From positions 16,976 to 80,975 of the forward strand of contig WGAY01000064.1 of the NCBI GenBank assembly GCA_015494585.1: a DNA stretch of 64,000 nt, in the 5' to 3' direction. Source of the stretch: Candidatus Omnitrophota bacterium. GTDB lineage: Bacteria; Omnitrophota; Gorgyraeia; S143-82. Shown here piece by piece: positions 4,231 to 58,016 of the stretch. A program made the translations under genes and the position numbers. The notes under the pieces are model-generated. The model was given only the letters and a program-made list of their open reading frames with translations, made no database searches and was not told the origin of the DNA. How positions within the stretch are numbered: position 1 is the first letter of the stretch; the number at the start of each line of letters is the position of its first letter.

Positions 4231-4831
4231 GCGCCTGACAGTCCTTGTTATCTGCATATTGGGTCTCGGTATTGTAGGGGGCTGTGTTCGTGAGAAGATG
4301 GATCAATCCTTGCCTCTTCCAACGGCGCCAGATGTGAACTATGAGATTACTCATATTGCTGTACTTCCATTTGGCTCAGATAGTTCAGTTCCAGATGATG
4401 TTAGGGATAAGATCTATAGGGCATTTATAGATTACCTTATACCCCATAGGGGTGTATTCGTTGTCCATCCAGAGATAATATACCGCTTTGTCGATAAAGA
4501 TGCCCCTATCCTCGATGTAGAAAAGGCCGCAATGGTTGGAGATAAATTAGGAGTCAATGGTATAGTTATAGGTTACCTGTCAGATTATTCGGAAAATCCA
4601 TTTCGGATAACCATAGATGCAACTCTTTATCCTATGGTTAATGTCAATAACTATATTTGTACTGGGCACAAATCTTATGATCCGGAAGATATTTATGTCA
4701 TTGCTTCTATGAAGCAATATGCCTCTCGTTTTGAATGGAGTAAACTACCTCTGGGTTGGGAACGGATCAAACTGAATATAGATATTTTTTGTGACTTTGT
4801 GGCCTGGGATATGGTAAAATCTTTCTTTTAG
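4223..4831 (+). CDS. Putative lipoprotein of unknown function, translationally coupled to cheY
   Basis: Signal peptide with lipobox (LGIVGGC). The ATG sits inside the cheY stop region (AAATGGTTAG). No recognisable catalytic motif. Confidence 0.45.
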   Translation: MVRRLTVLVICILGLGIVGGCVREKMDQSLPLPTAPDVNYEITHIAVLPFGSDSSVPDDVRDKIYRAFIDYLIPHRGVFVVHPEIIYRFVDKDAPILDVEKAAMVGDKLGVNGIVIGYLSDYSENPFRITIDATLYPMVNVNNYICTGHKSYDPEDIYVIASMKQYASRFEWSKLPLGWERIKLNIDIFCDFVAWDMVKSFF

Positions 4832-47056: not shown

Positions 47057-47890
47057 ATGAGCCGTGTGCGCCAAAGTGTGGTTGCGGGCAAGTTTTATCC
47101 CGCCAGTGTCTCTGCCCTGACCGAGTGGATTAAGTCTCAGGTCAGAGGATCTGTGTCCCAATTAGTAGTTGCTGCAATAGCCCCGCATGCGGGTTATGTA
47201 TTTTCAGGAGACCTTGCTGTTAAGACGCTCTCTGGAATCGGTCCGAAAGATGTCTTTGTATTGCTTGGGCCAAATCATACTGGACTTGGAAATACTGTAG
47301 CTCTGTCTGGATCAGATACATGGCAGACACCGTTTGGTGATATCAAGGTCGATGTGGATCTAAGAGAGGAGATGCTTTCTATCAATGGAATCACTATAGA
47401 CGATATTGCACACCTATATGAGCATTCCCTTGAGGTCTTTTTGCCTATGTTGAAGTTTCTCTATCCTTCAGCTAGAATATTGCCCGTGACTATAAAGGGC
47501 GATAGGGAAAAGGATTTTTTTATAACATTAGGCAAATCCCTTTTTCCGTTGTATAATAAATACAAAAAGAAGGTGGCATGGATTGTAAGTTCTGATATGA
47601 ATCACTATGAAAATCAGAAAGTTACGCTATTTAAAGACAAACTTGCTATAGATAAAATCCTAAATCTTGATTATCAGGGCCTCTGGGAAGAGGTTGAAAA
47701 GCATAAGATTTCAATGTGTGGTATACACCCTGCTATGGTCTTACTTTCTATGTTAGAGGAAGATGGGGATAACATAGAAGTAGATCTAGTTGGCCATAAG
47801 ACCAGTGGTGATGTGCTGGGCGATTATGAACAGGTGGTAGGTTATATGGGATGTTTATTTCTGCATAAAGGGGCAAAGGAGGGGTTATGA
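47057..47890 (+). CDS. MEMO1-family protein (AmmeMemoRadiSam system protein B-like)
   Basis: 277 aa. N-terminal RQSVVAGKFYPAS and APHAGYVFSG motifs typical of the Memo/AMMECR1-associated family. Confidence 0.7.
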   Translation: MSRVRQSVVAGKFYPASVSALTEWIKSQVRGSVSQLVVAAIAPHAGYVFSGDLAVKTLSGIGPKDVFVLLGPNHTGLGNTVALSGSDTWQTPFGDIKVDVDLREEMLSINGITIDDIAHLYEHSLEVFLPMLKFLYPSARILPVTIKGDREKDFFITLGKSLFPLYNKYKKKVAWIVSSDMNHYENQKVTLFKDKLAIDKILNLDYQGLWEEVEKHKISMCGIHPAMVLLSMLEEDGDNIEVDLVGHKTSGDVLGDYEQVVGYMGCLFLHKGAKEGL

Positions 47891-48696
47891 CGAAAAGGGA
47901 AACTTTTCTGTTTAGTCTACTGACTATCTTCTTTATTGCTGCGATTGGTGCATTGGTATATTTTGTTGTTCAGTACCTTAACATAAAGGTCGAAAACTCA
48001 AAGATCCTTCAGAATATACGCCAGGTAAAGAATACCCTGGAGCTGACGAAGGAAGAGGTAAAGTCTCGCGATAGGAAGATAGAGGAATTGAAGGATCAGA
48101 TATCAAAGTTTAAGAATAAGGTTATTTCCTTAAAGAAAGAGATTACAGGGCTTGAGAAAGAGAAGCAAGAATTAATAGAGGATATGGATGCACTAAAGGA
48201 AAAATTTTCAGATGTGGATGCTGCTCTCGAGGAAAAGAGTAATCAGATATGGCGTCTCAAAAAGGAACTTATGCGTACCCGTGGCCGTTTGTTTGCTGTT
48301 GAGGAGTATCTTCAGGGTCTAATGAAGGCAAAAAGCTCACCTGTTGTTACTGGAAGGCAGGGCTCCCCTTCGGCCTCTACGGGTTCAACTAGTTCTGAAG
48401 AACAGGTTTCTTTGGGCAAGATTGTGGTTGCTTCCGGACAGGGGACATCTGATGCCGCAGGTGCTGCTGTGTCTGCCAGGGTCTTATCAATTAATACCAA
48501 GTATGGATTTGCCATATTTGCCATGGATAAATCTGTCCAACCGCATGTCGGATGGCATGTCAGGGTTGAGCTTAGTGATGGGAAAAGCTTTGTAGGGGTA
48601 ATAGATACAGTTAGGCGAAATATGGTTACTATGGATATACCTAAGAATATAGATATAGCAATTGGAGATAGAGTTCAAATCGTAGTGTTGAATTAA
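47887..48696 (+). CDS. Hypothetical membrane-anchored coiled-coil protein with C-terminal beta-rich domain
   Basis: N-terminal TM helix, about 130-aa heptad-rich region (KEEVKSRDRKIEELKDQISKFKNKVISLKKEITGLEKEKQELIED...), Ser/Thr/Gly linker, about 100-aa C-terminal beta domain. Confidence 0.45.
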   Translation: MTKRETFLFSLLTIFFIAAIGALVYFVVQYLNIKVENSKILQNIRQVKNTLELTKEEVKSRDRKIEELKDQISKFKNKVISLKKEITGLEKEKQELIEDMDALKEKFSDVDAALEEKSNQIWRLKKELMRTRGRLFAVEEYLQGLMKAKSSPVVTGRQGSPSASTGSTSSEEQVSLGKIVVASGQGTSDAAGAAVSARVLSINTKYGFAIFAMDKSVQPHVGWHVRVELSDGKSFVGVIDTVRRNMVTMDIPKNIDIAIGDRVQIVVLN

Positions 48697-50012
48697 TGCG
48701 TTCTTGTATAGTTGTTCCATCCGATAAGTCCATTTCACATAGGGCATTGATATTTTCGGCCATCTCTAATGGTAGGATAGAGATAGAGAATCTCCTTTTT
48801 GCGGAAGATTGTCTGTCAACAGCCGATGTATTATCTAGGTTGGGAATTTCTATTTCTCTTTCTAAAAAGTTGCGTAGGGCAGTTGTTATTGGTAAGGGAA
48901 AGTTTGGTTTTACAATGCCTAGGGAAACACTCTTTGCTGGCAATTCTGGAACGACTATGCGGATTATGACGGGCCTTTTGGCAGGTCAGGCGTTTGATTC
49001 TGTTATTGATGGGGATGCATCCCTCAGAAGACGTCCTATGCTCAGGGTGATAAGCCCGCTGCTTGAAATGGGGGCTAGGATTCGTGGACGTGTAGCCAGG
49101 ATTAAAGGGAGAAGGGATGTCTTTGCCCCCCTTGAGATAGAGGGTAGCCGACTGATTGGTAGGCGGATTGTCTCTAATGTTGCCAGTGCCCAAGTAAAGA
49201 CTGCGGTTATCCTAGCTGGATTGTGTGCGGAAGGCCGAACATATTACAGAGAGCCTATCTTATCTCGAGATCATACCGAACGTTTACTTAAGGACTTTGG
49301 AATACATTTGATCCGTCGTAAGGGGTGGATTATTGTAGACGGCGGCAGAAATCTTATCTCCCCAGGAAGGATATTTGTTCCTGGGGATATATCTTCTGCA
49401 GCCTTTTTTATGGGTTATGCGGCTATAAGTCCCTCTACAGAAGTGGTAATAAAGAGGGTGGGAATAAATCCGTCGCGTCTGGGCGTCGTCCGTGTATTTA
49501 AGAGGATGGGTGTTAAAATAACATTTTTAAATAAAGTAAATTCTCCTGAACCTTACGCCGATATTGTGGTAAAATCATCTAATTTGAAGGCTGTACAGGT
49601 AAAGGCCGAAGAGATACCATCTTTGATAGATGAGGTTCCTATTATTGCGGTTGTTGCTGCATTTGCCAAGGGCAAGACGCAGATAGAGGGAGTAGATGAG
49701 CTAAGGGTAAAGGAAAGCGATAGGCTTTATGCACTTGCCTATAACCTTGGCAAATTTGGCATTCGGGTCGATATAAAACAGAGAAAGACGCGTACGGACT
49801 TGATTATCCATGGCGGAAGAGGGTTTTCAAGACCTAAAGGAATGGTAAAGTCTTTCTCTGACCACAGGATTGCAATGAGTATGGCGGTATTGCTCGCTAG
49901 ATTAGGGTTGCCCATTGAGAAGTTAGATAATAGAGATTGTACGGCAATCTCGTATCCTGAATTTTGGGACACGCTGGAAGCGGTAACTAAAGGAGTGGAT
50001 TATGAATTTTAG
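48696..50012 (+). CDS. aroA: 3-phosphoshikimate 1-carboxyvinyltransferase (EPSP synthase)
   Basis: 438 aa. VPSDKSISHRALIFSA N-terminal motif; LFAGNSGTTMR. Confidence 0.8.
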   Translation: MRSCIVVPSDKSISHRALIFSAISNGRIEIENLLFAEDCLSTADVLSRLGISISLSKKLRRAVVIGKGKFGFTMPRETLFAGNSGTTMRIMTGLLAGQAFDSVIDGDASLRRRPMLRVISPLLEMGARIRGRVARIKGRRDVFAPLEIEGSRLIGRRIVSNVASAQVKTAVILAGLCAEGRTYYREPILSRDHTERLLKDFGIHLIRRKGWIIVDGGRNLISPGRIFVPGDISSAAFFMGYAAISPSTEVVIKRVGINPSRLGVVRVFKRMGVKITFLNKVNSPEPYADIVVKSSNLKAVQVKAEEIPSLIDEVPIIAVVAAFAKGKTQIEGVDELRVKESDRLYALAYNLGKFGIRVDIKQRKTRTDLIIHGGRGFSRPKGMVKSFSDHRIAMSMAVLLARLGLPIEKLDNRDCTAISYPEFWDTLEAVTKGVDYEF

Positions 50013-51063
50013 GCACCTCCTGCACAGAATAATGGGCAAGTTGGGGGGGATCTTCGCAACGGATATAGGGATAGATCTTGGTACTGCCAATACCCTGGTT
50101 TACGTAAGGGGTGACGGAATAGTCCTGTGCGAGCCATCGGTAGTTGCTGTTTCCAAAGATACCCATGAGGTGCTTAAGGTCGGTGCAGAGGCAAAGGATA
50201 TGCTAGGTCGTACGCCTGGTAATATTATGGCAATAAGGCCCTTGAAGGAAGGGGTTATTGCAGATTTCGACGCTACAGAGGCCATGCTTAGACGGTTTAT
50301 TGAGAAGGCCAATCCGAGAAAGTATCTGGCTAGTCCGAGGGTGGTAGTGGCCATCCCTTCTGGCATTACAGAGGTTGAAAAGCGCGCGGTTAAAGAATCT
50401 GCTCAACGGGCTGGAGCAAGGGAGGTGTTTTTGATAGAGGAACCAATGGCAGCGGCTATTGGTGTTGGTTTGCCTATTGCAGATCCCTCTGGGAACATGA
50501 TTATAGACATAGGTGGTGGGACGACAGAGATAGCGGTTATTTCTCTTTCCGGTATAGTCTATTCTACTTCGATAAAGATGGGTGGTGATAAATGGGATGT
50601 GGCGATACTGGAGCATGTAAAAAAGACCTATAATCTGCTTATTGGTGAGCGCACGGCCGAGATGATAAAGATAAAAATAGGTTCTGCCTATCCGGTGGAT
50701 AAAGAGACGACACTTGATATACGAGGCAGGGATATGGTAACTGGTCTGCCAAAGACAGTAACGATATCTTCGGAAGAGATAAGGGAGGCATTAAAGGACC
50801 ATGTACACAAGATTATAGACGCCGTGCGCCTGGCCCTTGAAAAGACTCCTCCTGAGTTGTCTGCCGACCTTATCGATAAAGGAATTGTGCTTGCAGGTGG
50901 AGGGGCCTTGCTCAAAGGTATAGACCGATTGATTGCCGAGGAAACCGGATTGCCTGTTATTATTGCTGACGATCCCATTACCGCTGTTGCTGTTGGTACG
51001 GGCAAGGTTTTAGAAGAAGAGGAGTTTCTGTGGAGGGTTACCGTTCCTGTGCGCTATGAATAG
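50002..51063 (+). CDS. mreB: Rod shape-determining protein MreB
   Basis: IGIDLGTANTLVYVRG, DIGGGTTEIAVISL. The true start may be the internal Met at about 50032. Confidence 0.9.
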   Translation: MNFRHLLHRIMGKLGGIFATDIGIDLGTANTLVYVRGDGIVLCEPSVVAVSKDTHEVLKVGAEAKDMLGRTPGNIMAIRPLKEGVIADFDATEAMLRRFIEKANPRKYLASPRVVVAIPSGITEVEKRAVKESAQRAGAREVFLIEEPMAAAIGVGLPIADPSGNMIIDIGGGTTEIAVISLSGIVYSTSIKMGGDKWDVAILEHVKKTYNLLIGERTAEMIKIKIGSAYPVDKETTLDIRGRDMVTGLPKTVTISSEEIREALKDHVHKIIDAVRLALEKTPPELSADLIDKGIVLAGGGALLKGIDRLIAEETGLPVIIADDPITAVAVGTGKVLEEEEFLWRVTVPVRYE

Positions 51064-51967
51064 TTTTTGTCCGGATCCAATGCAATTGGTCGGTAATACT
51101 CCTGTTGTGCATCTTAAAAAAGATGTGTTCATTCATCTATTCCCTGAACTGAAGTTTATAGAAAGGGCACCCTTTGAGATATACGCTAAGCTAGAGAAAT
51201 ACAATCCCCTTGGCAGTGTAAAGGATAGGCCCGTTTTATATATGATGAAAGACTTGATTGATAAAGGGGAATTGCACCCTGGTATGTCTGTGGTTGAGCC
51301 TACTTCTGGGAATACCGGTATTGCTATTGCCTGGATGTCTTCTCTGCTTGGCCTAAAGGCGGTAATCGTAATGCCTGAGTCTATGTCTGAGCAGCGAAAA
51401 AGGATACTGCGGCTCCTCGGTGCAGAGCTTATTTTGACAAAGGCCAACCTTGGTATGCAAGGGGCTATAGAGGAGGCAGCTCGGCTGCTTGAAAGGGATG
51501 ACGATGCTGTCACACTTGGCCAATTCACCAATCCCCTCAACTCTCTTGCCCATTATAAGACCACTGGGCCTGAGATATGGTCTCAATTGGGAGGTGAGGT
51601 TGCAGTGGTGGTAGCTGGAATAGGGACGGGAGGGACCATTTCAGGGACGGGCAGATTCCTTAAAGAGAAGGATGAGAAGATAAGGGTTATTGGCGTAGAG
51701 CCCAGCAGCTTTCCGCATCGTATACAGGGTATAGGGGCGGGTTTTGTGCCAGAAATATTAGATAAATCGGTAATAGATGATATTGTTAAGGTAGATGATA
51801 CCTATGTCCTGGAGATCTTTGAGATATTCCCTAAGATTTCTGGTTTGTTGGTTGGCCTTTCTTCCTGTGCTGTGTTGGTGGGATTGCGTAACTTCTTATT
51901 GGATAACAGGGCTATTGTGGGCAATATCCTGCTGATTTTTCCTGATACAGGCGAACGATATTTATGA
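51056..51967 (+). CDS. Cysteine synthase-family PLP enzyme (CysK/CysM-like), inserted between mreB and mreC
   Basis: PLP-lysine motif NPLGSVKDRP, GIGTGGTISG glycine loop, TSGNTG. Compared with canonical CysK there is an N-terminal insertion and a shortened C-terminus. Confidence 0.7.
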   Translation: MNSFCPDPMQLVGNTPVVHLKKDVFIHLFPELKFIERAPFEIYAKLEKYNPLGSVKDRPVLYMMKDLIDKGELHPGMSVVEPTSGNTGIAIAWMSSLLGLKAVIVMPESMSEQRKRILRLLGAELILTKANLGMQGAIEEAARLLERDDDAVTLGQFTNPLNSLAHYKTTGPEIWSQLGGEVAVVVAGIGTGGTISGTGRFLKEKDEKIRVIGVEPSSFPHRIQGIGAGFVPEILDKSVIDDIVKVDDTYVLEIFEIFPKISGLLVGLSSCAVLVGLRNFLLDNRAIVGNILLIFPDTGERYL

Positions 51968-52282
51968 ATTTATAAACTAAAAGCTCAAAACGCAAAACTA
52001 AAAACACAACTCAAAGCTCAAAACTATTTTTTAACATGGGATACAAAGAAAGCGGAGTTAAGGGAGGCAAAATCGGAGTGCAAGAATTGGCAGCTCAGCT
52101 GACGATGAAGAGAAGAGAAAGAAAGGATAAAATAAAGAGATTTAAATTTTAAGCTGTGGATTTGACTTTTGAGATTTTAGATTTGAGTTATATTTGGATA
52201 AGAAAAGAGATGGTTGATTAAACAAGCGATGGAAGATAAAGGATTCTAACGTATAATTCGGAATAAATTATTAGGTTAAATA

Positions 52283-53059
52283 GTGAATATAAAACGATTA
52301 TTAATCTATTCCTTTGTTATTCTATTTCTGGGGATTACGTTGCGCTTGGTTATGCCTTCATTTCTAAGCGGCCTTTCCTCGCCTATGGGTTCTATAAGAA
52401 GGGCGAGTAATCTAGTATTGGGACTGTTGCATTACCCCCGGATATATAAGGAATATCAAAGACTCCTTGCTAAGGATAGAGAGATTAGTTTTTACGAGAA
52501 TTACAATCAGTCCTTAAAGGAGGAAAATAAACGCCTAAGGGCCATGCTCAATATGCCGCCGACCGCTGGTTTTGATTACATATTCGCCGATGTTATCGCA
52601 AGTCCCTTATCTGGTAAAGGAGACTTTTTTTATATAGATGCAGGTAAGGATAAGGGGGTAAGGGTTGGAATGGGGGTTATCTTGTCTGGCTATGTTGTTG
52701 CTGGCAGGGTGGTCGAGGTGAGAAAACATATTTCGAAGGTATCGTTTTTATGGAATGTAAATTTTTCCTGTGCTGCCATGGATGAGTTTTCTAAAGAAGA
52801 AGGAGTGGTCGTTGGCGGCAGGCCTGTGCGTCTTAGGTTTCTGAGTCAGAAGAGCCATGTAGAGGTAGGTGATGTAGTAAGGACATCTGTATTGAGTCTA
52901 TTTTTTCCGCCGGGATCGCTTATAGGTGAAATTGTAGGTTTTAAGTGCAAGCCAGGACAAGTGGAGTGTTTTGCGGAGATTCGTCCGTGTATAGAAGGAA
53001 TGTCTATTTATCAGGTTATAGTACTGTCTCCCAGAAGAGATACGGGTTTATTAGAATAA
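52283..53059 (+). CDS. mreC: Rod shape-determining protein MreC
   Basis: N-terminal TM, coiled-coil region (KEENKRLRAMLN), two beta-domains with G/V-rich motifs; precedes mreD-like and PBP2. GTG start. Confidence 0.75.
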   Translation: MNIKRLLIYSFVILFLGITLRLVMPSFLSGLSSPMGSIRRASNLVLGLLHYPRIYKEYQRLLAKDREISFYENYNQSLKEENKRLRAMLNMPPTAGFDYIFADVIASPLSGKGDFFYIDAGKDKGVRVGMGVILSGYVVAGRVVEVRKHISKVSFLWNVNFSCAAMDEFSKEEGVVVGGRPVRLRFLSQKSHVEVGDVVRTSVLSLFFPPGSLIGEIVGFKCKPGQVECFAEIRPCIEGMSIYQVIVLSPRRDTGLLE

Positions 53060-53100
53060 TCCTTTTATTTTGCCTCTTTCTCTTTGATATCTCTTCAGGG

Positions 53101-53397
53101 ATGCCCATATCTTTTTCTTTTCTATATGCTACTTTAATATCTGATTTTTGGTTGATAATCTTATGGGCGTTACTGTGTGATGCATTTGTGGGAGGTTTCC
53201 CTGTTTATCTGCCTATAGGATTGTTAATATCCCTTGTTGTTTGTAAGGTAAAAAAGATCTGGATAAGATTTATTTCCCTGACTATTTTGCTATGGGTGGT
53301 TTCTCCAATGTCTATGATGCCGTCAGGTTGGGGTTTGGCGCTGACTCTCTTTATATATGGGGCTTGGTCAGTCTATGGACAAGATATTGAGAATTAA
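53101..53397 (+). CDS. MreD-like small membrane protein (start uncertain)
   Basis: Three TM helices in the mreD position between mreC and PBP2. 98 aa from ATG 53101; the frame is open for another 52 codons upstream with no clear start codon. Confidence 0.35.
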   Translation: MPISFSFLYATLISDFWLIILWALLCDAFVGGFPVYLPIGLLISLVVCKVKKIWIRFISLTILLWVVSPMSMMPSGWGLALTLFIYGAWSVYGQDIEN

Positions 53398-55099
53398 CAT
53401 ACTACGCTGGACAATAGTTGGGATGTGGTTTTTATTGTCTATGGGCCTGTTTCATTTACAGGTTTTGCGTTGGCAGTATTACTATAAAAAGAGCCAGGAG
53501 AACTTTGTCAGAATGATTCCTTTGCCTGCACCCCGTGGGGATATTCTCGATAGAAAGATGCGCGTGCTGGCCTATAATACCCTTGCCTTTGATGTTGCGA
53601 TAAACCCACAAGCAAAGGATAGGGAGATCGCTTTTAAGGTCCTGGCGCGCTTATTGGATATTTCCATAGATAAACTCAAAAAAGAATATAAAAAAAATTA
53701 TCTTGCTCCCTTTATTCCGGTAGTAATCTATAGAGACATACCCAAAAAGCTTGCCCTAAAAATAGAGGAGTTGAGGTTTGTTTATCCTCAGATAACTGTT
53801 TTGATAAGACCCAAAAGGGTCTATCCCTGGGGAGAGGTTGTTTCACATGTACTGGGATATGTACGACCTATAGATAAACAGCGCCTGCGTCTTTTGAAAA
53901 AATACGGCTACTCCAGGCGCGATGAGGTGGGCTACACCGGAGTAGAGGAGGAGTATGACCCTTATTTGAAGGGCCGTCCTGGGCTGGTAAAGATTGCAGT
54001 AGATAGTCGCGGAAGAAAAGTAGAATTGTTATCCGAGAAGCTGCCTGAAAAAGGGCAAAGCCTTGTATTGACGATAGACAAGGATATCCAGGAGATTGTG
54101 TTCAATCACCTAAAAGGCCATAATGGCAGTGTAATTATGATGGACCCTTTTTCGGGTGAGGTCCTGGCAATGGTGAACTGGCCTTCCTATGATAATAACC
54201 TGTTCCTATCTGGCAGCGACAATCAGAAAAAGACGGCCATCCTCAAGGACCAATCCTTTCCCTTGCTTAACCGTGCTATGGCTGGTCTTTATCCGCCTGG
54301 TTCAACCTTTAAGATACTGATGGCCGCGGCCGCACTTGATTCTGGCATCATTAACATTAATACGAGATTTTACTGCCCCGGATTTGTTAAATTGGGTGGA
54401 GTGCGGTTTGGGTGTGTGCATATTCATAAAGATGAGAATGTAATTGAGGCGCTTGCCCATTCCTGTAATGTCTTTTTTTATAATCTTGGTGTCAAGCTTG
54501 GTGTGGATAATATCGATCTATATGCGGAGCGCCTTGGTGTGGGAAGAAAGACGGAAATAGACCTGCCAGGTGAAAAGAATGGCCTGTTGCCAGGGAGGAG
54601 ATGGAAGCAACAGACCCTGCATCAAGGCTGGTTTGAGGGTGATACCCTCAATCTCTCTATTGGTCAAGGGTATCTATTAATGACCCCGATCCAGGTCCTT
54701 ATGCTGGGTGCAGTGGTTGCCAATGGGGGATTTATAGTAAGACCTTTTGTAGTCAAATATTCAGGAGATTACGAAGTAAATTACACTAGCAAAAAAGACA
54801 CAGGTATTCCTAGAGAGGTTTGGAAAATAGTTGAAAACGGTCTGGAATCTGCCGTATCCTTTTCGGATGGCACGGCGCACATTTTGTCTTCCATAGATGG
54901 GGTGCGGGTGGCTGGTAAGACAGGTACTGCGCAGAGTAAGCCTGGTAGGCCTGCCCATGGGTGGTTCGTCGGATTTTTCCCGGTAGAACGGCCTAAGTAT
55001 GCCGTGGTCATATTTTTGGAATACGGAAAGAGTAGTTATTATGCCTGTGAGCTTTTGAAAGAAATAATAGAAGAGATGGTGACTAAGGGATTAGTTTAG
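53357..55099 (+). CDS. mrdA: Penicillin-binding protein 2 (elongasome transpeptidase)
   Basis: 580 aa. N-terminal anchor, dimerisation domain, transpeptidase STFK (PGSTFKIL), SCN (AHSCNVFF), KTGT (GKTGTAQ). Confidence 0.88.
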   Translation: MGLGQSMDKILRINILRWTIVGMWFLLSMGLFHLQVLRWQYYYKKSQENFVRMIPLPAPRGDILDRKMRVLAYNTLAFDVAINPQAKDREIAFKVLARLLDISIDKLKKEYKKNYLAPFIPVVIYRDIPKKLALKIEELRFVYPQITVLIRPKRVYPWGEVVSHVLGYVRPIDKQRLRLLKKYGYSRRDEVGYTGVEEEYDPYLKGRPGLVKIAVDSRGRKVELLSEKLPEKGQSLVLTIDKDIQEIVFNHLKGHNGSVIMMDPFSGEVLAMVNWPSYDNNLFLSGSDNQKKTAILKDQSFPLLNRAMAGLYPPGSTFKILMAAAALDSGIININTRFYCPGFVKLGGVRFGCVHIHKDENVIEALAHSCNVFFYNLGVKLGVDNIDLYAERLGVGRKTEIDLPGEKNGLLPGRRWKQQTLHQGWFEGDTLNLSIGQGYLLMTPIQVLMLGAVVANGGFIVRPFVVKYSGDYEVNYTSKKDTGIPREVWKIVENGLESAVSFSDGTAHILSSIDGVRVAGKTGTAQSKPGRPAHGWFVGFFPVERPKYAVVIFLEYGKSSYYACELLKEIIEEMVTKGLV

Positions 55100-55144
55100 A
55101 CAGCACTTTATTTGAAGAGGAAATGTGAGGCTGATAGTATATTT

Positions 55145-55171
55145 CTTTTTTCCTTTGTTCCTTGATATAAT
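55145..55171 (+). promoter_or_regulatory. Putative promoter with extended -10 (TGaTATAAT) upstream of the nif3-like gene
   Basis: TGATATAAT at 55163-55171; weak T-rich -35. Confidence 0.35.
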
Positions 55172-55288
55172 GGCTAGAGGAAAATGTTAAGGTATCGAGG
55201 GATTGAGGAAGAAGATAATTTGGAGGTTAGATCATAGAAAGGCTATATCTGTGTAAAGAGGATTTGCATAATCTGAGGTGAAACGAGG

Positions 55289-55322
55289 TTAGGCTATAAA
55301 TATACTTAGGCTATAAATATAC
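55289..55322 (+). repeat. Perfect 17-bp tandem direct repeat (TTAGGCTATAAATATAC x2) immediately upstream of the nif3-like RBS
   Basis: Two identical adjacent copies at 55289-55305 and 55306-55322. Each contains TATAAATAT. Confidence 0.8.
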
Positions 55323-55341
55323 AAAGAAAGGAGATGTAGAT

Positions 55342-56301
55342 ATGAGGCTTAGGCAACTATACGATAAGGTGATAGAGATAGGGATTGAACATGATCCAAG
55401 GGATGGGGATAGCATTGAGGCAGTGATGGCCAGGTGGGAGAAGGCCTATAGCCAGTTGTCTGATAAAGAAAAGGAATTTTTTGATAAGGAATTATTAAGG
55501 CATCCATTTGCGGATACCCGCATACTCAATGGTACCGGAGAGGAGGAGATAGAATCGGTCTTTGTCGGGATAGATATCGATGTCTCTGAGGTCGTATTGG
55601 TGGATAGAATGAGGGAGAAGGGCGAAAGGATAGACGCGCTAATATCCCACCACCCATCGGCTCGAGCCTGGGCCCAGTTTTACGAGGTGATGGATATGCA
55701 GACCGATATATTAGAGCACCTTGGTGTCAATCCTGTTGTCTCTGAAAAGTTGCTTCAGGAGCGCAAGGCCCAGGTTAAGAGGAAGGTAATGCCTGCCAAT
55801 CATTTTCGAGGTATCTCAGCGGCTCAGATACTGCAGATCCCCTGGATGTGTGCCCATACCCCGGCAGACAACTGTGTCTACGACTATCTAAAAGAATTGT
55901 TCGAAAGGCAGGCGCCTCGCAGCGTGGGCGATATCATAGATATACTCTATGAGATTCCAGAATATCAGGAAGGCGCCAGGCGCGGAAGCCCTCCAGTTAT
56001 ATTACTGGGGAATAAATCTAACCGGGCAGGCAAAGTCGCCCTTGAAATGACTGGCGGGACAGAGCCCTCAGTTGAAAATTATCAGTATCTTGCTCAGTCT
56101 GGAACCGGAACTATTGTCGGTATGCACTTCAGTGAAGAGCACTATAAAAAGGCAAAGGAGGCCCGTCTGAACCTTATCGTTGCCGGGCATATGGCAAGTG
56201 ATACCCTTGGGATGAACCTGCTCCTAGACGAGATAGAGGCATCGCTTGGCCACTTGAATATCCTATCAGGCTCAGGATTCTACAGGATAAGCCATAGGTA
56301 G
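55342..56301 (+). CDS. Nif3-family dinuclear metal centre protein (GTP cyclohydrolase 1 type 2 homolog), tentative
   Basis: LISHHPS (HHP) motif and C-terminal VAGHMASDTLGM resembling the NIF3 GHYxTE metal-ligand segment. Weak N-terminal match. Confidence 0.5.
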   Translation: MRLRQLYDKVIEIGIEHDPRDGDSIEAVMARWEKAYSQLSDKEKEFFDKELLRHPFADTRILNGTGEEEIESVFVGIDIDVSEVVLVDRMREKGERIDALISHHPSARAWAQFYEVMDMQTDILEHLGVNPVVSEKLLQERKAQVKRKVMPANHFRGISAAQILQIPWMCAHTPADNCVYDYLKELFERQAPRSVGDIIDILYEIPEYQEGARRGSPPVILLGNKSNRAGKVALEMTGGTEPSVENYQYLAQSGTGTIVGMHFSEEHYKKAKEARLNLIVAGHMASDTLGMNLLLDEIEASLGHLNILSGSGFYRISHR

Positions 56302-56331
56302 TGATTGCTTACAGGCATAAGGGGTAATTTT

Positions 56332-57210
56332 ATGCGCATAACTGTACTGGGGGCCGATGGCCAGCTCGGGACGGATGTCCTTGATTTGCTTTCGAAGGAT
56401 TTGCCTGTCAACGGCCTTACAAGAGAGGACTTTGATGCCACTGATAGGGATGTCTTTAGACAGCTGAGGCCGCTTTTGGAGAATAGCGATATAGTGATAA
56501 ACTGTGTCGCCTATACGGATGTCGACAGGGCAGAAGAGGAGGAGGCCCTGGCCTATAGGCTAAATGCAGAATTCCCTAAGGGTCTGGCAAAAATATTGGG
56601 GAGCTCTAATAAGCTATTATTTCACATAAGCACTGATTATGTCTTTTCAGGACGTTTGGGGCGGCCTTATAGAGAAGATGATACTCCTGATCCGATCAAT
56701 GTTTACGGGAAGACAAAGCTGGCAGGTGAAAGGGCCGTCTTGAGCTTATGTCCCAGACACTTTATATTTAGGACGGCTGGTTTGTTTGGTAAGGCAGGGC
56801 CAAGCGGCAAATCAGGCAATTTTATAGACACGATAATAAAGCTCGCCAGAGAAAGGGCTTTGCTAAAGGTCGTTGATGATCAGCTAACCAGTCCCACCCA
56901 TACCTTGGATGTGGCCAGGGCAATAAAAGTCTTTATTGAAAAGGGTGTTGGAGAATACGGAATATTTAATGTGGTAAGCAGTGGATATTGTTCGTGGTAT
57001 AAATTAGCGAATTATATTGTGCAGCGGCTTGGCATAGAGACGCAGGTTGTTCCGGTCTCTTCGGACGAGTTTCCCAGACCAGCAGCCAGACCGAAGTTTT
57101 CTGCCCTTGATAATTCGAAGGTATCGAAATGGTATAATATGCCTTACTGGCAGGATGCAGTAGAGGAGTATCTCAGGATAAAGATGTTGCTGCCGAAAGG
57201 AGAGAGATAG
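56332..57210 (+). CDS. dTDP-4-dehydrorhamnose reductase-like NAD(P)-dependent epimerase/reductase (RmlD family)
   Basis: MRITVLGADGQLG Rossmann start; size and YxxxK region typical of RmlD. ATG 56332 preferred over the track start at 56305. Confidence 0.65.
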   Translation: MRITVLGADGQLGTDVLDLLSKDLPVNGLTREDFDATDRDVFRQLRPLLENSDIVINCVAYTDVDRAEEEEALAYRLNAEFPKGLAKILGSSNKLLFHISTDYVFSGRLGRPYREDDTPDPINVYGKTKLAGERAVLSLCPRHFIFRTAGLFGKAGPSGKSGNFIDTIIKLARERALLKVVDDQLTSPTHTLDVARAIKVFIEKGVGEYGIFNVVSSGYCSWYKLANYIVQRLGIETQVVPVSSDEFPRPAARPKFSALDNSKVSKWYNMPYWQDAVEEYLRIKMLLPKGER

Positions 57211-58016
57211 TGCCGGAGCTGCCTGAAGTAGAAATAATAGTAAGACGTATAAGGAAGGTATTTCTAGGATCGGTTGTCTCTGATATTGTTTTGCCTTCTA
57301 AAAGGGCTATATCTTCAATGGGCAAGTTGCGTCAGAGACTAGTGGGCCAGAGGTTAGAAGATGTCTTAAGACGAGGCAAGGCGATGGTCTTGAAGATAGG
57401 CCAGGGTTTTCTCATCGTCCACCTGCGTTTGAATGGTCAGGTCTGCATTGTACGTGATATGCCCAGATATTGCATCTTTGGGATGTTGTTTGAGGAAAAG
57501 GAGTATAATCTCTATATATGTGATTTTCGAGGCCTTGCCCAGGTAAAGTGGGTCGAAGACATCGATGAGGAGGAATTTATTAAGGGCCTTGGTCCGGATG
57601 TCCTCTATGACGATCTGCCCTTTGATTACTTCTATGATAGGCTCAAGAGGAATAGAGGGAGTATAAAGACCCTGCTTATGGATCAGCGTTTTATCTCGGG
57701 TATAGGGAATATCTACGCAGTCGAGGCCTTGTTTCGGGCAGGTATATCGCCACATAGGCCGGCCTCTTCTCTGTCTCGAGAAGAAGCAAAGAGGCTGCAT
57801 AGGGCCGTAAAGGAGGTAATTTCCTTGGCCGTAAAGAGGGCAGCAGTCCCTGAAAAGTACCTCAAGGACGATTCGCATAGTCCTGCAAAGAAGGCCTCCT
57901 GGGAGTTCTTCGTATATGGCAGAGAAGGACAGGAATGCAGGGTTTGTGGTGGTAAGATAAAGAAGATGAAGATAGCAGGTAGAGGGACATACTTTTGTCC
58001 GAATTGTCAGGTATGA
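57210..58016 (+). CDS. mutM: Formamidopyrimidine-DNA glycosylase
   Basis: N-terminal MPELPEVE catalytic Pro2/Glu3; C-terminal zinc finger CRVCGGKIKKMKIAGRGTYFCPNCQ. Confidence 0.88.
   Translation: MPELPEVEIIVRRIRKVFLGSVVSDIVLPSKRAISSMGKLRQRLVGQRLEDVLRRGKAMVLKIGQGFLIVHLRLNGQVCIVRDMPRYCIFGMLFEEKEYNLYICDFRGLAQVKWVEDIDEEEFIKGLGPDVLYDDLPFDYFYDRLKRNRGSIKTLLMDQRFISGIGNIYAVEALFRAGISPHRPASSLSREEAKRLHRAVKEVISLAVKRAAVPEKYLKDDSHSPAKKASWEFFVYGREGQECRVCGGKIKKMKIAGRGTYFCPNCQV

Follow-up and report, generated by a model that had tools for sequence, protein, structure and literature searches.

The rod-shape genes of bacteria are typically found as a mreB-mreC-mreD-pbp2 cluster, in some cases followed by rodA, and the junction between mreB and mreC is very stable across bacteria. 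Cysteine synthases belong to a different sphere of metabolism. Two types of these pyridoxal 5'-phosphate (PLP) enzymes, CysK (O-acetylserine sulfhydrylase (OASS) A) and CysM (OASS B), are the closest described relatives of the gene studied here. Moonlighting of CysK is established in other systems, and CysM is not known to form a complex with CysE. The only known kind of direct link between the CysK family and cell shape is the synthesis of lanthionine, as CysK1 (FN1220) of Fusobacterium nucleatum is a lanthionine synthase that is essential for peptidoglycan and rod morphology (PMC9600241). Here we examine a stretch of 64,000 nucleotides (nt) from a Candidatus Omnitrophota bacterium (GCA_015494585.1, contig WGAY01000064.1; hereafter "the window", to which all positions refer, with features on the + strand unless stated), in which a gene for a CysK-family PLP enzyme stands between mreB and mreC.

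With the exception of rodA, all parts of the canonical cluster are present in the window in the usual order and orientation. However, a metabolic gene and a spacer, together 1219 nt, split mreB from mreC, and rodA does not follow pbp2. A preliminary description of the locus had raised a structural or regulatory role of the enzyme in the elongasome. We show herein that the CysK-like protein belongs to the CysK family but is divergent and has a short lid, and that it occurs in a two-species lineage of Omnitrophota. The arrangement is probably due to the insertion of a segment of about 1.2 kb (the CysK-type gene plus about 315 nt of non-coding DNA) after mreB, that is, to a local change of gene order that brought in an ordinary beta-replacement enzyme.

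Results

The interrupted mreB-mreC junction and its distribution

The features of the locus are collected in Table 1. The preliminary description had the layout right: its order of mreB, CysK-like enzyme, spacer and mreC-mreD-pbp2 agrees with the coordinates on the open reading frame (ORF) map, and the 3' end of mreB and the 5' end of the CysK-like ORF do share 8 nt (ATGAATAG). The spacer is non-coding as claimed, but is 315 rather than 316 nt long. Its premise that mreB and mreC are almost universally contiguous also holds. In a scan of MreB loci with one genome per species (80 loci, genes placed by tblastn), the gap between the two genes had a median of 34 nt (51 measured loci), versus 1219 nt in the window.

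The same gene order occurs in at least four independent assemblies of one species (GCA_027101535.1, GCA_027052085.1, ENA ERZ23495249 and Logan SRR10312501), and the exact CysK-like protein is encoded in an mreB-PALP(-mreC-pbp2) context in two NCBI metagenome-assembled genomes (MAGs), one ENA assembly and one Logan assembly. A sister species, whose MreB is 99% identical, possesses an 82%-identical CysK-like protein in an aroA-mreB-PALP context, on a contig that ends 254 nt past the stop codon of this gene. The sister MreC (81% identity, the only MreC relative found) is encoded on a second contig from the same sample, which begins 158 nt upstream of mreC. Because the two contig ends can be joined through an exact 44-nt overlap, the order in the sister species is aroA-mreB-cysK-like-spacer (about 368 nt)-mreC-mreD-pbp2-rodA. 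The break of the sister assembly inside the spacer coincides with a dispersed repeat, CCTTCATTCT(C/T)CATGCTCCATTCTTCATGCTT, two copies of which are found in the cysK-mreC spacer and another between pbp2 and rodA. Copies lie at 4505-4536 and 4622-4631 of sister contig L005 and at 35-66 and 3188-3209 of contig L100, and the repeat is paired with GA-rich inverted partners, giving hairpin-like units. It resembles an element of the repetitive extragenic palindrome or miniature inverted-repeat transposable element (REP/MITE) type, and is located where the gene order varies between species.

Outside these two species, the arrangement was not recovered. The nearest of the 80 scanned loci belong to Omnitrophota MAGs (MreB 64-71% identity), followed by Chthoniobacterales and other Verrucomicrobiota. 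Most of the 80 loci have mreC and/or pbp2 after mreB, and in none of them was a CysK-like gene detected by tblastn within 6 kb of mreB. An MreB protein search yielded five closer relatives (MreB 86-91% identical), related to the window species at the family level (AroA 49-56% and MreC 45-47% identity), and the insertion is absent after mreB in all five. Three of them have the order coil-aroA-mreB-mreC-mreD-pbp2-rodA, with mreB-mreC gaps of 8, 5 and 73 nt. In the other two (MreB 87-89%), a gene for a 129-amino-acid (aa) CBS-domain protein and a DegT-type aminotransferase gene come right after mreB, and mreC is not there. A nucleotidyltransferase gene follows DegT in one of the two (locus L104, 7092-9747), while the other locus ends earlier (L105, 7088-8648). 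In both, mreC, mreD and pbp2 must be elsewhere or missing. The junction after mreB thus exists in three different states within one Omnitrophota clade.

Given its absence from the five relatives and the 80 further genomes, only the window species and its sister carry the insertion; conservation of the mreB-cysK-like-mreC order extends to the latter but no further. Since unrelated genes fill the same slot in two relatives, the junction after mreB behaves as a rearrangement hotspot rather than as a conserved functional linkage. In a search of 5.8 billion protein sequences, the exact CysK-like protein and the 82%-identical cluster were the sole members of this sub-lineage, and a scan of JGI metagenome contigs gave no CysK-like relative above 44% identity. 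The best homologs outside the two-species lineage share 48-51% identity, and the two nearest of them that were examined have gene contexts unrelated to mre genes.

Start codon and spacer of the inserted segment

The last codons of mreB, TAT GAA TAG, contain the ATG of the CysK-like gene. The last 9 nt of mreB, TATGAATA(A/G), are identical in relatives with and without the insertion, and all of these MreB proteins end in VRYE. Because this end is also found in relatives that lack the insertion, the ATG of the CysK-like gene derives from the ancestral mreB, and the inserted DNA starts at 51064, the first position past the mreB stop codon. The CysK-like protein starts with MNSFCPDPMQLVGNTP (MNSIYPEP in the sister species), and the length from the N-terminus to the GNTP motif equals that of Escherichia coli CysK and the nearest homologs. 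The gene is a nearly complete CysK ORF fused to a borrowed start codon, with host-derived first codons. A GGAGG sequence lies 18 nt upstream of the start, but at the normal spacing no convincing Shine-Dalgarno sequence is present. The CysK-like gene is likely to be expressed by translational coupling to mreB.

The spacer consists of two conserved ends and a variable middle (Table 1). The A/C-rich, G-poor 48 nt directly past the CysK-like stop codon are 94% identical to the sister sequence even though synonymous sites are near saturation (synonymous divergence, dS, about 1), which suggests a constrained non-coding element; it has no match in Rfam. The middle of the sister spacer holds two hairpin-type copies of the dispersed repeat instead of a sequence alignable with that of the window. 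An imperfect inverted repeat (51974-51996/52161-52183) lies in the window spacer, and the motif AAAGCTCAAAAC, considered as a mobile element of the window genome, was rejected since it was found within the spacer alone. A 38-aa ORF at 52036-52152 is probably spurious, as it has no conserved counterpart in the sister species, no Shine-Dalgarno sequence and no PADLOC match. The 3' part of the spacer includes a TATAAT at 52252-52257, 25 nt upstream of the GTG start codon of mreC. Consensus scans called no terminator and no sigma-70 promoter in the spacer, and the TATAAT is a candidate. As the closest relatives have 5-8 nt between mreB and mreC, the present upstream region of mreC is new and came with the insertion; its conserved part may be a replacement promoter or leader for mreC-mreD-pbp2. 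An RNA element was also considered and rejected: at gathering thresholds, Rfam returned two tRNAs only for the whole window, and a permissive scan of the spacer gave a chance-level snoRNA match (E=0.85). The folding energy of the spacer was that of shuffled sequence (z=0.27), indicating no significant structure.

In the adjacent mreC, positions 52405-52480 of GCA_027101535.1 differ by 16 substitutions within 76 nt from the window and from a second assembly of the same species, while the flanking spacer is identical. Recombination over a short tract, or a segment of MreC that varies between strains, may account for this cluster.

The CysK-like protein

The CysK-like gene is predicted to be functional, being intact, under purifying selection and in possession of every catalytic motif. 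Relative to the sister species, its ratio of non-synonymous to synonymous divergence (dN/dS) is 0.098 at a dS of 1.0; the corresponding ratios of its neighbours are 0.118 (aroA), 0.137 (a coiled-coil gene upstream of aroA), 0.104 (mreC) and 0.060 (pbp2). As the preliminary description had stated for the Lys and Gly-loop motifs, the motifs are intact: SVK56DR, TSGNTG, GQFTNP (as Q156-F-T-N-P-L-N162 in GQFTNPLN), GIGTGGT and SS(C)A are all found, and so is the CysK-type motif H221-R-IQGIGAGF. At the position of G192, E. coli CysM has TTG instead of TGG. The best PDB match had an E-value of 1e-65. An AlphaFold2 (AF2) model (mean predicted local distance difference test score (pLDDT) 90.4, predicted template modelling score 0.89) shows the fold-type II PLP fold, and Foldseek aligned it with template modelling (TM) scores of 0.88-0.89 to plant, mycobacterial and other OASS structures (Arabidopsis thaliana OAS-TL 4aec and 1z7w, Mycobacterium tuberculosis CysK1 2q3b), which together with 1o58 serve as references for CysK.

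In a neighbour-joining distance tree rooted with CysM, the protein and its sister fall within CysK and not with CysM, yet on an accelerated branch (root-to-tip distance 0.67 versus 0.58 +/- 0.017). Against NCBIfam, it scored 297.3 bits with the cysKM model TIGR01136 (cutoff 344.15), 283.3 with the cysK model TIGR01139 (cutoff 350.95) and 248.4 with the cysM model TIGR01138 (cutoff 394.2); models for SbnA, cysteate synthase, CBS and Cds1 all scored under the CysK models. It shares with CysM (E. coli structures 2bhs and 2v03) the fold, the catalytic motifs and a similarly short stretch from EP to (F/Y)(V/L)P (13 residues here, 15 in E. coli CysM and 28 in E. coli CysK), but differs from it in having HRIQGIGAGF rather than the CysM-type PGIRRW.

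Three features set the protein apart from typical CysK, in addition to an identity of at most 51% to any outside homolog and the placement of the gene between mreB and mreC. First, the N-terminal insertion reported in the preliminary description is real, comprising about 9-14 residues at positions ~23-36. In the AF2 model, it forms two short helices (residues 22-28 and 30-37; pLDDT about 96), and its core, IHLFPEL, is invariant between the two species. Second, a deletion of about 10 residues before H221-R-IQGIGAGF, absent from that earlier account, shortens the lid loop, and residues 220-226 are the sole segment of the model with a pLDDT below 50. The homologous loop of AtOAS-TL contains the residues K217, H221 and K222 that bind serine acetyltransferase (SAT), and closes over the active site (PMC3388911). 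The deletion removes the position of K217, while His221 and Arg222 are still present. Because its lid loop is shorter by about 10 residues, and thus of a CysM-like length, the enzyme is probably free-standing and not part of a CysE-CysK cysteine synthase complex. Its active site would be more open, and the short lid may alter the range of substrates or nucleophiles. Third, several near-invariant positions are changed, among them the glycine of SSGA. As to the shortened C-terminus that had also been described, the protein, which ends in GERYL, does stop 5-8 residues short of its closest homologs, but its end point is within 3 residues of that of Thermotoga maritima CysK (1o58).

Codon usage of the CysK-like gene is native (z=-1.07), and the GC content at third codon positions (0.444) is inside the range of its neighbours, so that recent horizontal transfer, as judged by composition, was rejected. 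Relocation of a native gene and an old transfer look alike here, because AroA of the relatives (49-56% identity) is as diverged as the best CysK matches (48-51%). At such distances, orthologs in family-level relatives could look like the outside homologs.

Gene neighbourhood

The + strand carries 76 of the 77 ORFs called in the window, and a GC-skew profile of 46-58 kb is positive throughout. The window holds genes for chemotaxis and for arginine, folate and leucine biosynthesis, dapL, lptC/A, lptB, a Memo-like gene, the coiled-coil gene, aroA and the mre genes, as well as a NIF3-like gene, rmlD, fpg, thiamine genes and a Mrp antiporter; to judge by ORF sizes alone, 14-44 kb appears to be an rpoBC and ribosomal-protein super-operon. 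A gene of the aroA type (EPSP-synthase fold) directly precedes mreB in each of the five closer relatives and in 18 of the 24 loci labelled Omnitrophota, and in the window the 3' end of aroA overlaps the start of mreB by 11 nt. That this gene might be murA, which would have made a wall-synthesis theme, was rejected (358 bits with the AroA model, cutoff 287; 34 bits with the MurA model). With aroA overlapping mreB and dapL further upstream, biosynthetic genes already stand among the envelope genes of this co-directional housekeeping array, so that being neighbours in it is no predictor of a common function.

No second cysK, no cysE and no sulfur-assimilation gene was found in the 64-kb window, where 14-44 kb was searched for cysK and cysE by tblastn with E. 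coli CysK, CysM and CysE only; in the related loci, too, no further gene of the CysK family and no homolog of CysE was found. The LL-diaminopimelate aminotransferase gene dapL (573 bits, cutoff 507) suggests that the organism makes diaminopimelate (DAP), unlike Fusobacterium (PMC11602996). Known CysK partners insert a tail with a C-terminal Ile into the active site, and no protein encoded in the aroA-mre cluster has such an end. Four proteins of the window do end in Ile, all from unrelated genes, one being a 1173-aa ORF taken by its size as rpoB. No PADLOC hit and no defence or toxin context was seen around the CysK-like gene.

Among the rod-shape proteins, MreB, MreC (by Pfam) and PBP2 score past family cutoffs, although MreC is under that of TIGR00219 (80.6 versus 92.75 bits). 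MreD was assigned by position and hydrophobicity alone, and no Pfam or NCBIfam model matched it. Its start is ambiguous (53101, or 52945 for the longest ORF), and it evolves fast (64% aa identity to the sister species, dN/dS 0.15). After pbp2, the sister species (contig L100, 2976-6158) and three relatives have rodA and an MptE-like/Maf_flag10 gene. The window species has the NIF3-like gene, rmlD and fpg (55100-58016) instead, and no RodA homolog was found anywhere in the 64-kb window. A second rearrangement breakpoint, specific to the window species, is thus located directly after pbp2.

The gene directly upstream of aroA-mreB (47887-48696) encodes a coiled-coil protein of 269 aa whose N-terminal segment is hydrophobic. 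It occupies this place in the window, the sister species and each of the five closer relatives, and the Memo-like gene (47057-47890) precedes it in the first two and in three of the relatives. The coiled-coil proteins of relatives give weak matches to crescentin-type (Rod_CreS) and filament models. The protein may be associated with the cytoskeleton, and would be a more plausible shape-relevant protein than the CysK-like one.

Table 1. Positions of the genes, protein motifs and spacer segments at the mreB-mreC junction of the window
Feature	Position	Strand	Evidence or remark
aroA (3-phosphoshikimate 1-carboxyvinyltransferase)	48696..50012	+	TIGR01356 358 bits, cutoff 287
mreB	50002..51063	+	PF06723 492 bits; NF010539 521 bits
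CysK-family (O-acetylserine sulfhydrylase-like) PLP enzyme gene, 303 aa, inserted gene	51056..51967	+	PF00291 216 bits
Lineage-specific insertion, residues ~22-37, KDVFIHLFPELKFIER	51119..51166	+	Alignments; AF2 model
Lys56 codon, predicted PLP Schiff-base lysine, SVKDR motif	51221..51223	+	Invariant in 47- and 11-sequence alignments including E. coli CysK and CysM
T83-S-G-N-T-G88, substrate/asparagine loop	51302..51319	+	Invariant in alignments
G190-T-G-G-T194, glycine-rich PLP-phosphate loop	51623..51637	+	Invariant in the 47-sequence alignment of closest homologs
S217-S-F-P-H-R-I-Q-G-I226, shortened lid loop	51704..51733	+	~10 residues of CysK enzymes unmatched in PDB and homolog alignments, immediately ahead of HKIQGIG
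S269-S270-C271, PLP-N1 serine motif	51860..51868	+	Gly 100% conserved in 45 homologs, Cys here in both species
Non-coding spacer, 315 nt	51968..52282		Between CysK-like gene and mreC
A/C-rich, G-poor 48-nt element	51968..52015	+	Directly past CysK-like stop; 94% identical to sister
Variable spacer middle, AT-rich	52016..52187	.	Not alignable with sister
Conserved 3' spacer part, upstream region of mreC	52188..52282	+	86% identical to sister over 96 nt
mreC	52283..53059	+	PF04085 87 bits; GTG start
mreD-like small membrane protein ORF	53101..53397	+	Position between mreC and pbp2; hydrophobic sequence; gene call in two same-species assemblies
pbp2 (mrdA)	53357..55099	+	TIGR03423 540 bits, cutoff 455

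Discussion

The ancestral order here was aroA-mreB-mreC-mreD-pbp2-rodA, in which only a few nt separated mreB from mreC. The two Omnitrophota species would have gained the segment by insertion in their common ancestor, directly past the mreB stop codon, and the incoming gene took up an ATG already present within the last two codons of mreB (TAT-GAA-stop). Its translation is probably coupled to mreB, and mreC-mreD-pbp2 would now draw expression signals of their own from the conserved 3' part of the spacer. The encoded protein is most likely a cysteine synthase, which would form cysteine from activated serine and sulfide; a working enzyme fits the data because all catalytic residues are retained under purifying selection. 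The location of the gene would reflect the instability of gene order in a long co-directional array of housekeeping genes rather than a function in the elongasome.

Several observations weigh against this account of an ordinary cysteine synthase, and some of them argue for a neofunctionalised enzyme of the CysK family, which we regard as a less likely alternative. Such an enzyme would catalyze another beta-replacement or beta-elimination reaction, for example with another nucleophile or activated serine, by desulfhydration of cysteine to H2S, or with a lanthionine-type product that feeds the cell wall, and its co-expression with mreB would be meaningful. The CysK-like protein lies under every curated CysK, CysM and CysKM cutoff. 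Among 94 alignment columns with a conservation of 90% or more in 45 homologs, 14 are altered (other members: mean 2.2, maximum 8). The altered ones include the 100%-conserved Gly of the SSGA motif, now Cys271, and an Asp, now Ala183, and most of these changes are fixed in both species. The lid loop shortened by about 10 residues is the one that shapes the entrance of the active site, and because the branch of the protein is accelerated, the reaction could differ from classical O-acetylserine sulfhydrylation. The structural neighbours include beta-cyanoalanine synthase, S-methylcysteine synthase and O-ureidoserine synthase; as these catalyze varied reactions, the fold does not fix the chemistry. 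Moreover, no cysE or sulfur-assimilation gene was found in the window, and a tight overlap of start and stop codons with mreB that has lasted over a dS of about 1 is also what selection for co-expression could give. The account further infers a promoter for mreC, co-transcription and translational coupling.

A precedent for such a change of function is FN1220, the lanthionine synthase of F. nucleatum (PMC9600241), with which the protein shares membership of the CysK family; the link to cell shape is here positional only. Unlike the host of FN1220, the window organism encodes an enzyme of the DAP pathway, the LL-DAP aminotransferase, and apparently makes DAP, which renders a lanthionine route less likely. 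No residue that determines the specificity of an alternative subfamily was identified in the protein, and the lower scores of the SbnA, cysteate synthase, CBS and Cds1 models likewise speak against neofunctionalisation, as does the presence of the insertion in two species only, their relatives doing without it.

The role in the elongasome suggested in the preliminary description is very improbable. There, the CysK-like protein would be a moonlighting partner that binds MreB or another shape protein and tunes its activity, in the way CysK acts with CysE, CymR and CdiA-CT. The overlap with mreB implies co-expression at comparable levels, the arrangement has been kept in two species over a dS of about 1, the loop for partner binding has been reshaped, the surface bears a conserved insertion, and the CysK:CdiA complex 8zyc is among the structural matches of the model. 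However, the two species share 99% identity in MreB, with a C-terminus like that of relatives without the insertion, so that MreB shows no co-adaptation. The lack of a C-terminal Ile in the mre-cluster proteins, the absence of a PADLOC or toxin context, the purifying selection on the catalytic residues, the very narrow distribution and the occurrence of unrelated genes in the same slot in relatives all point the same way. A literature search found no link between CysK moonlighting and MreB, and nothing useful on cysteine synthesis in Omnitrophota.

Recruitment of a CysK-type enzyme to wall elongation, by which it would supply a sulfur amino acid for peptidoglycan or would couple sulfur or cysteine status to the activity of MreB by direct contact through its remodelled lid loop and helical insertion, appears just as improbable; were it true, the translational coupling to mreB would be a selected feature. 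Finally, although all of the data are metagenome-assembled and the sister assembly is broken within the spacer, an assembly artefact or a decaying pseudogene can safely be set aside, as at least four independently made assemblies, and also the sister species, agree on the order, the sister contigs overlap by exactly 44 nt with a dispersed repeat that explains the break, and the ORF is intact with a dN/dS of 0.098.

Conclusions

The insertion after mreB, as we favour it, is a case of operon evolution in which a metabolic gene placed inside a conserved morphogenetic cluster would have been expressed at once by means of an ATG in the last codons of the upstream gene, while the same event gave the downstream genes a new upstream region. 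It also shows that the mreB-mreC junction, so stable across bacteria, can adopt three states in a single Omnitrophota clade. The short-lid variant of CysK may be of use for studies of the cysteine synthase complex and for enzymology of the substrate range. The significance would be far greater only if the enzyme were functionally tied to wall synthesis or to MreB, a tie for which there is no positive evidence.

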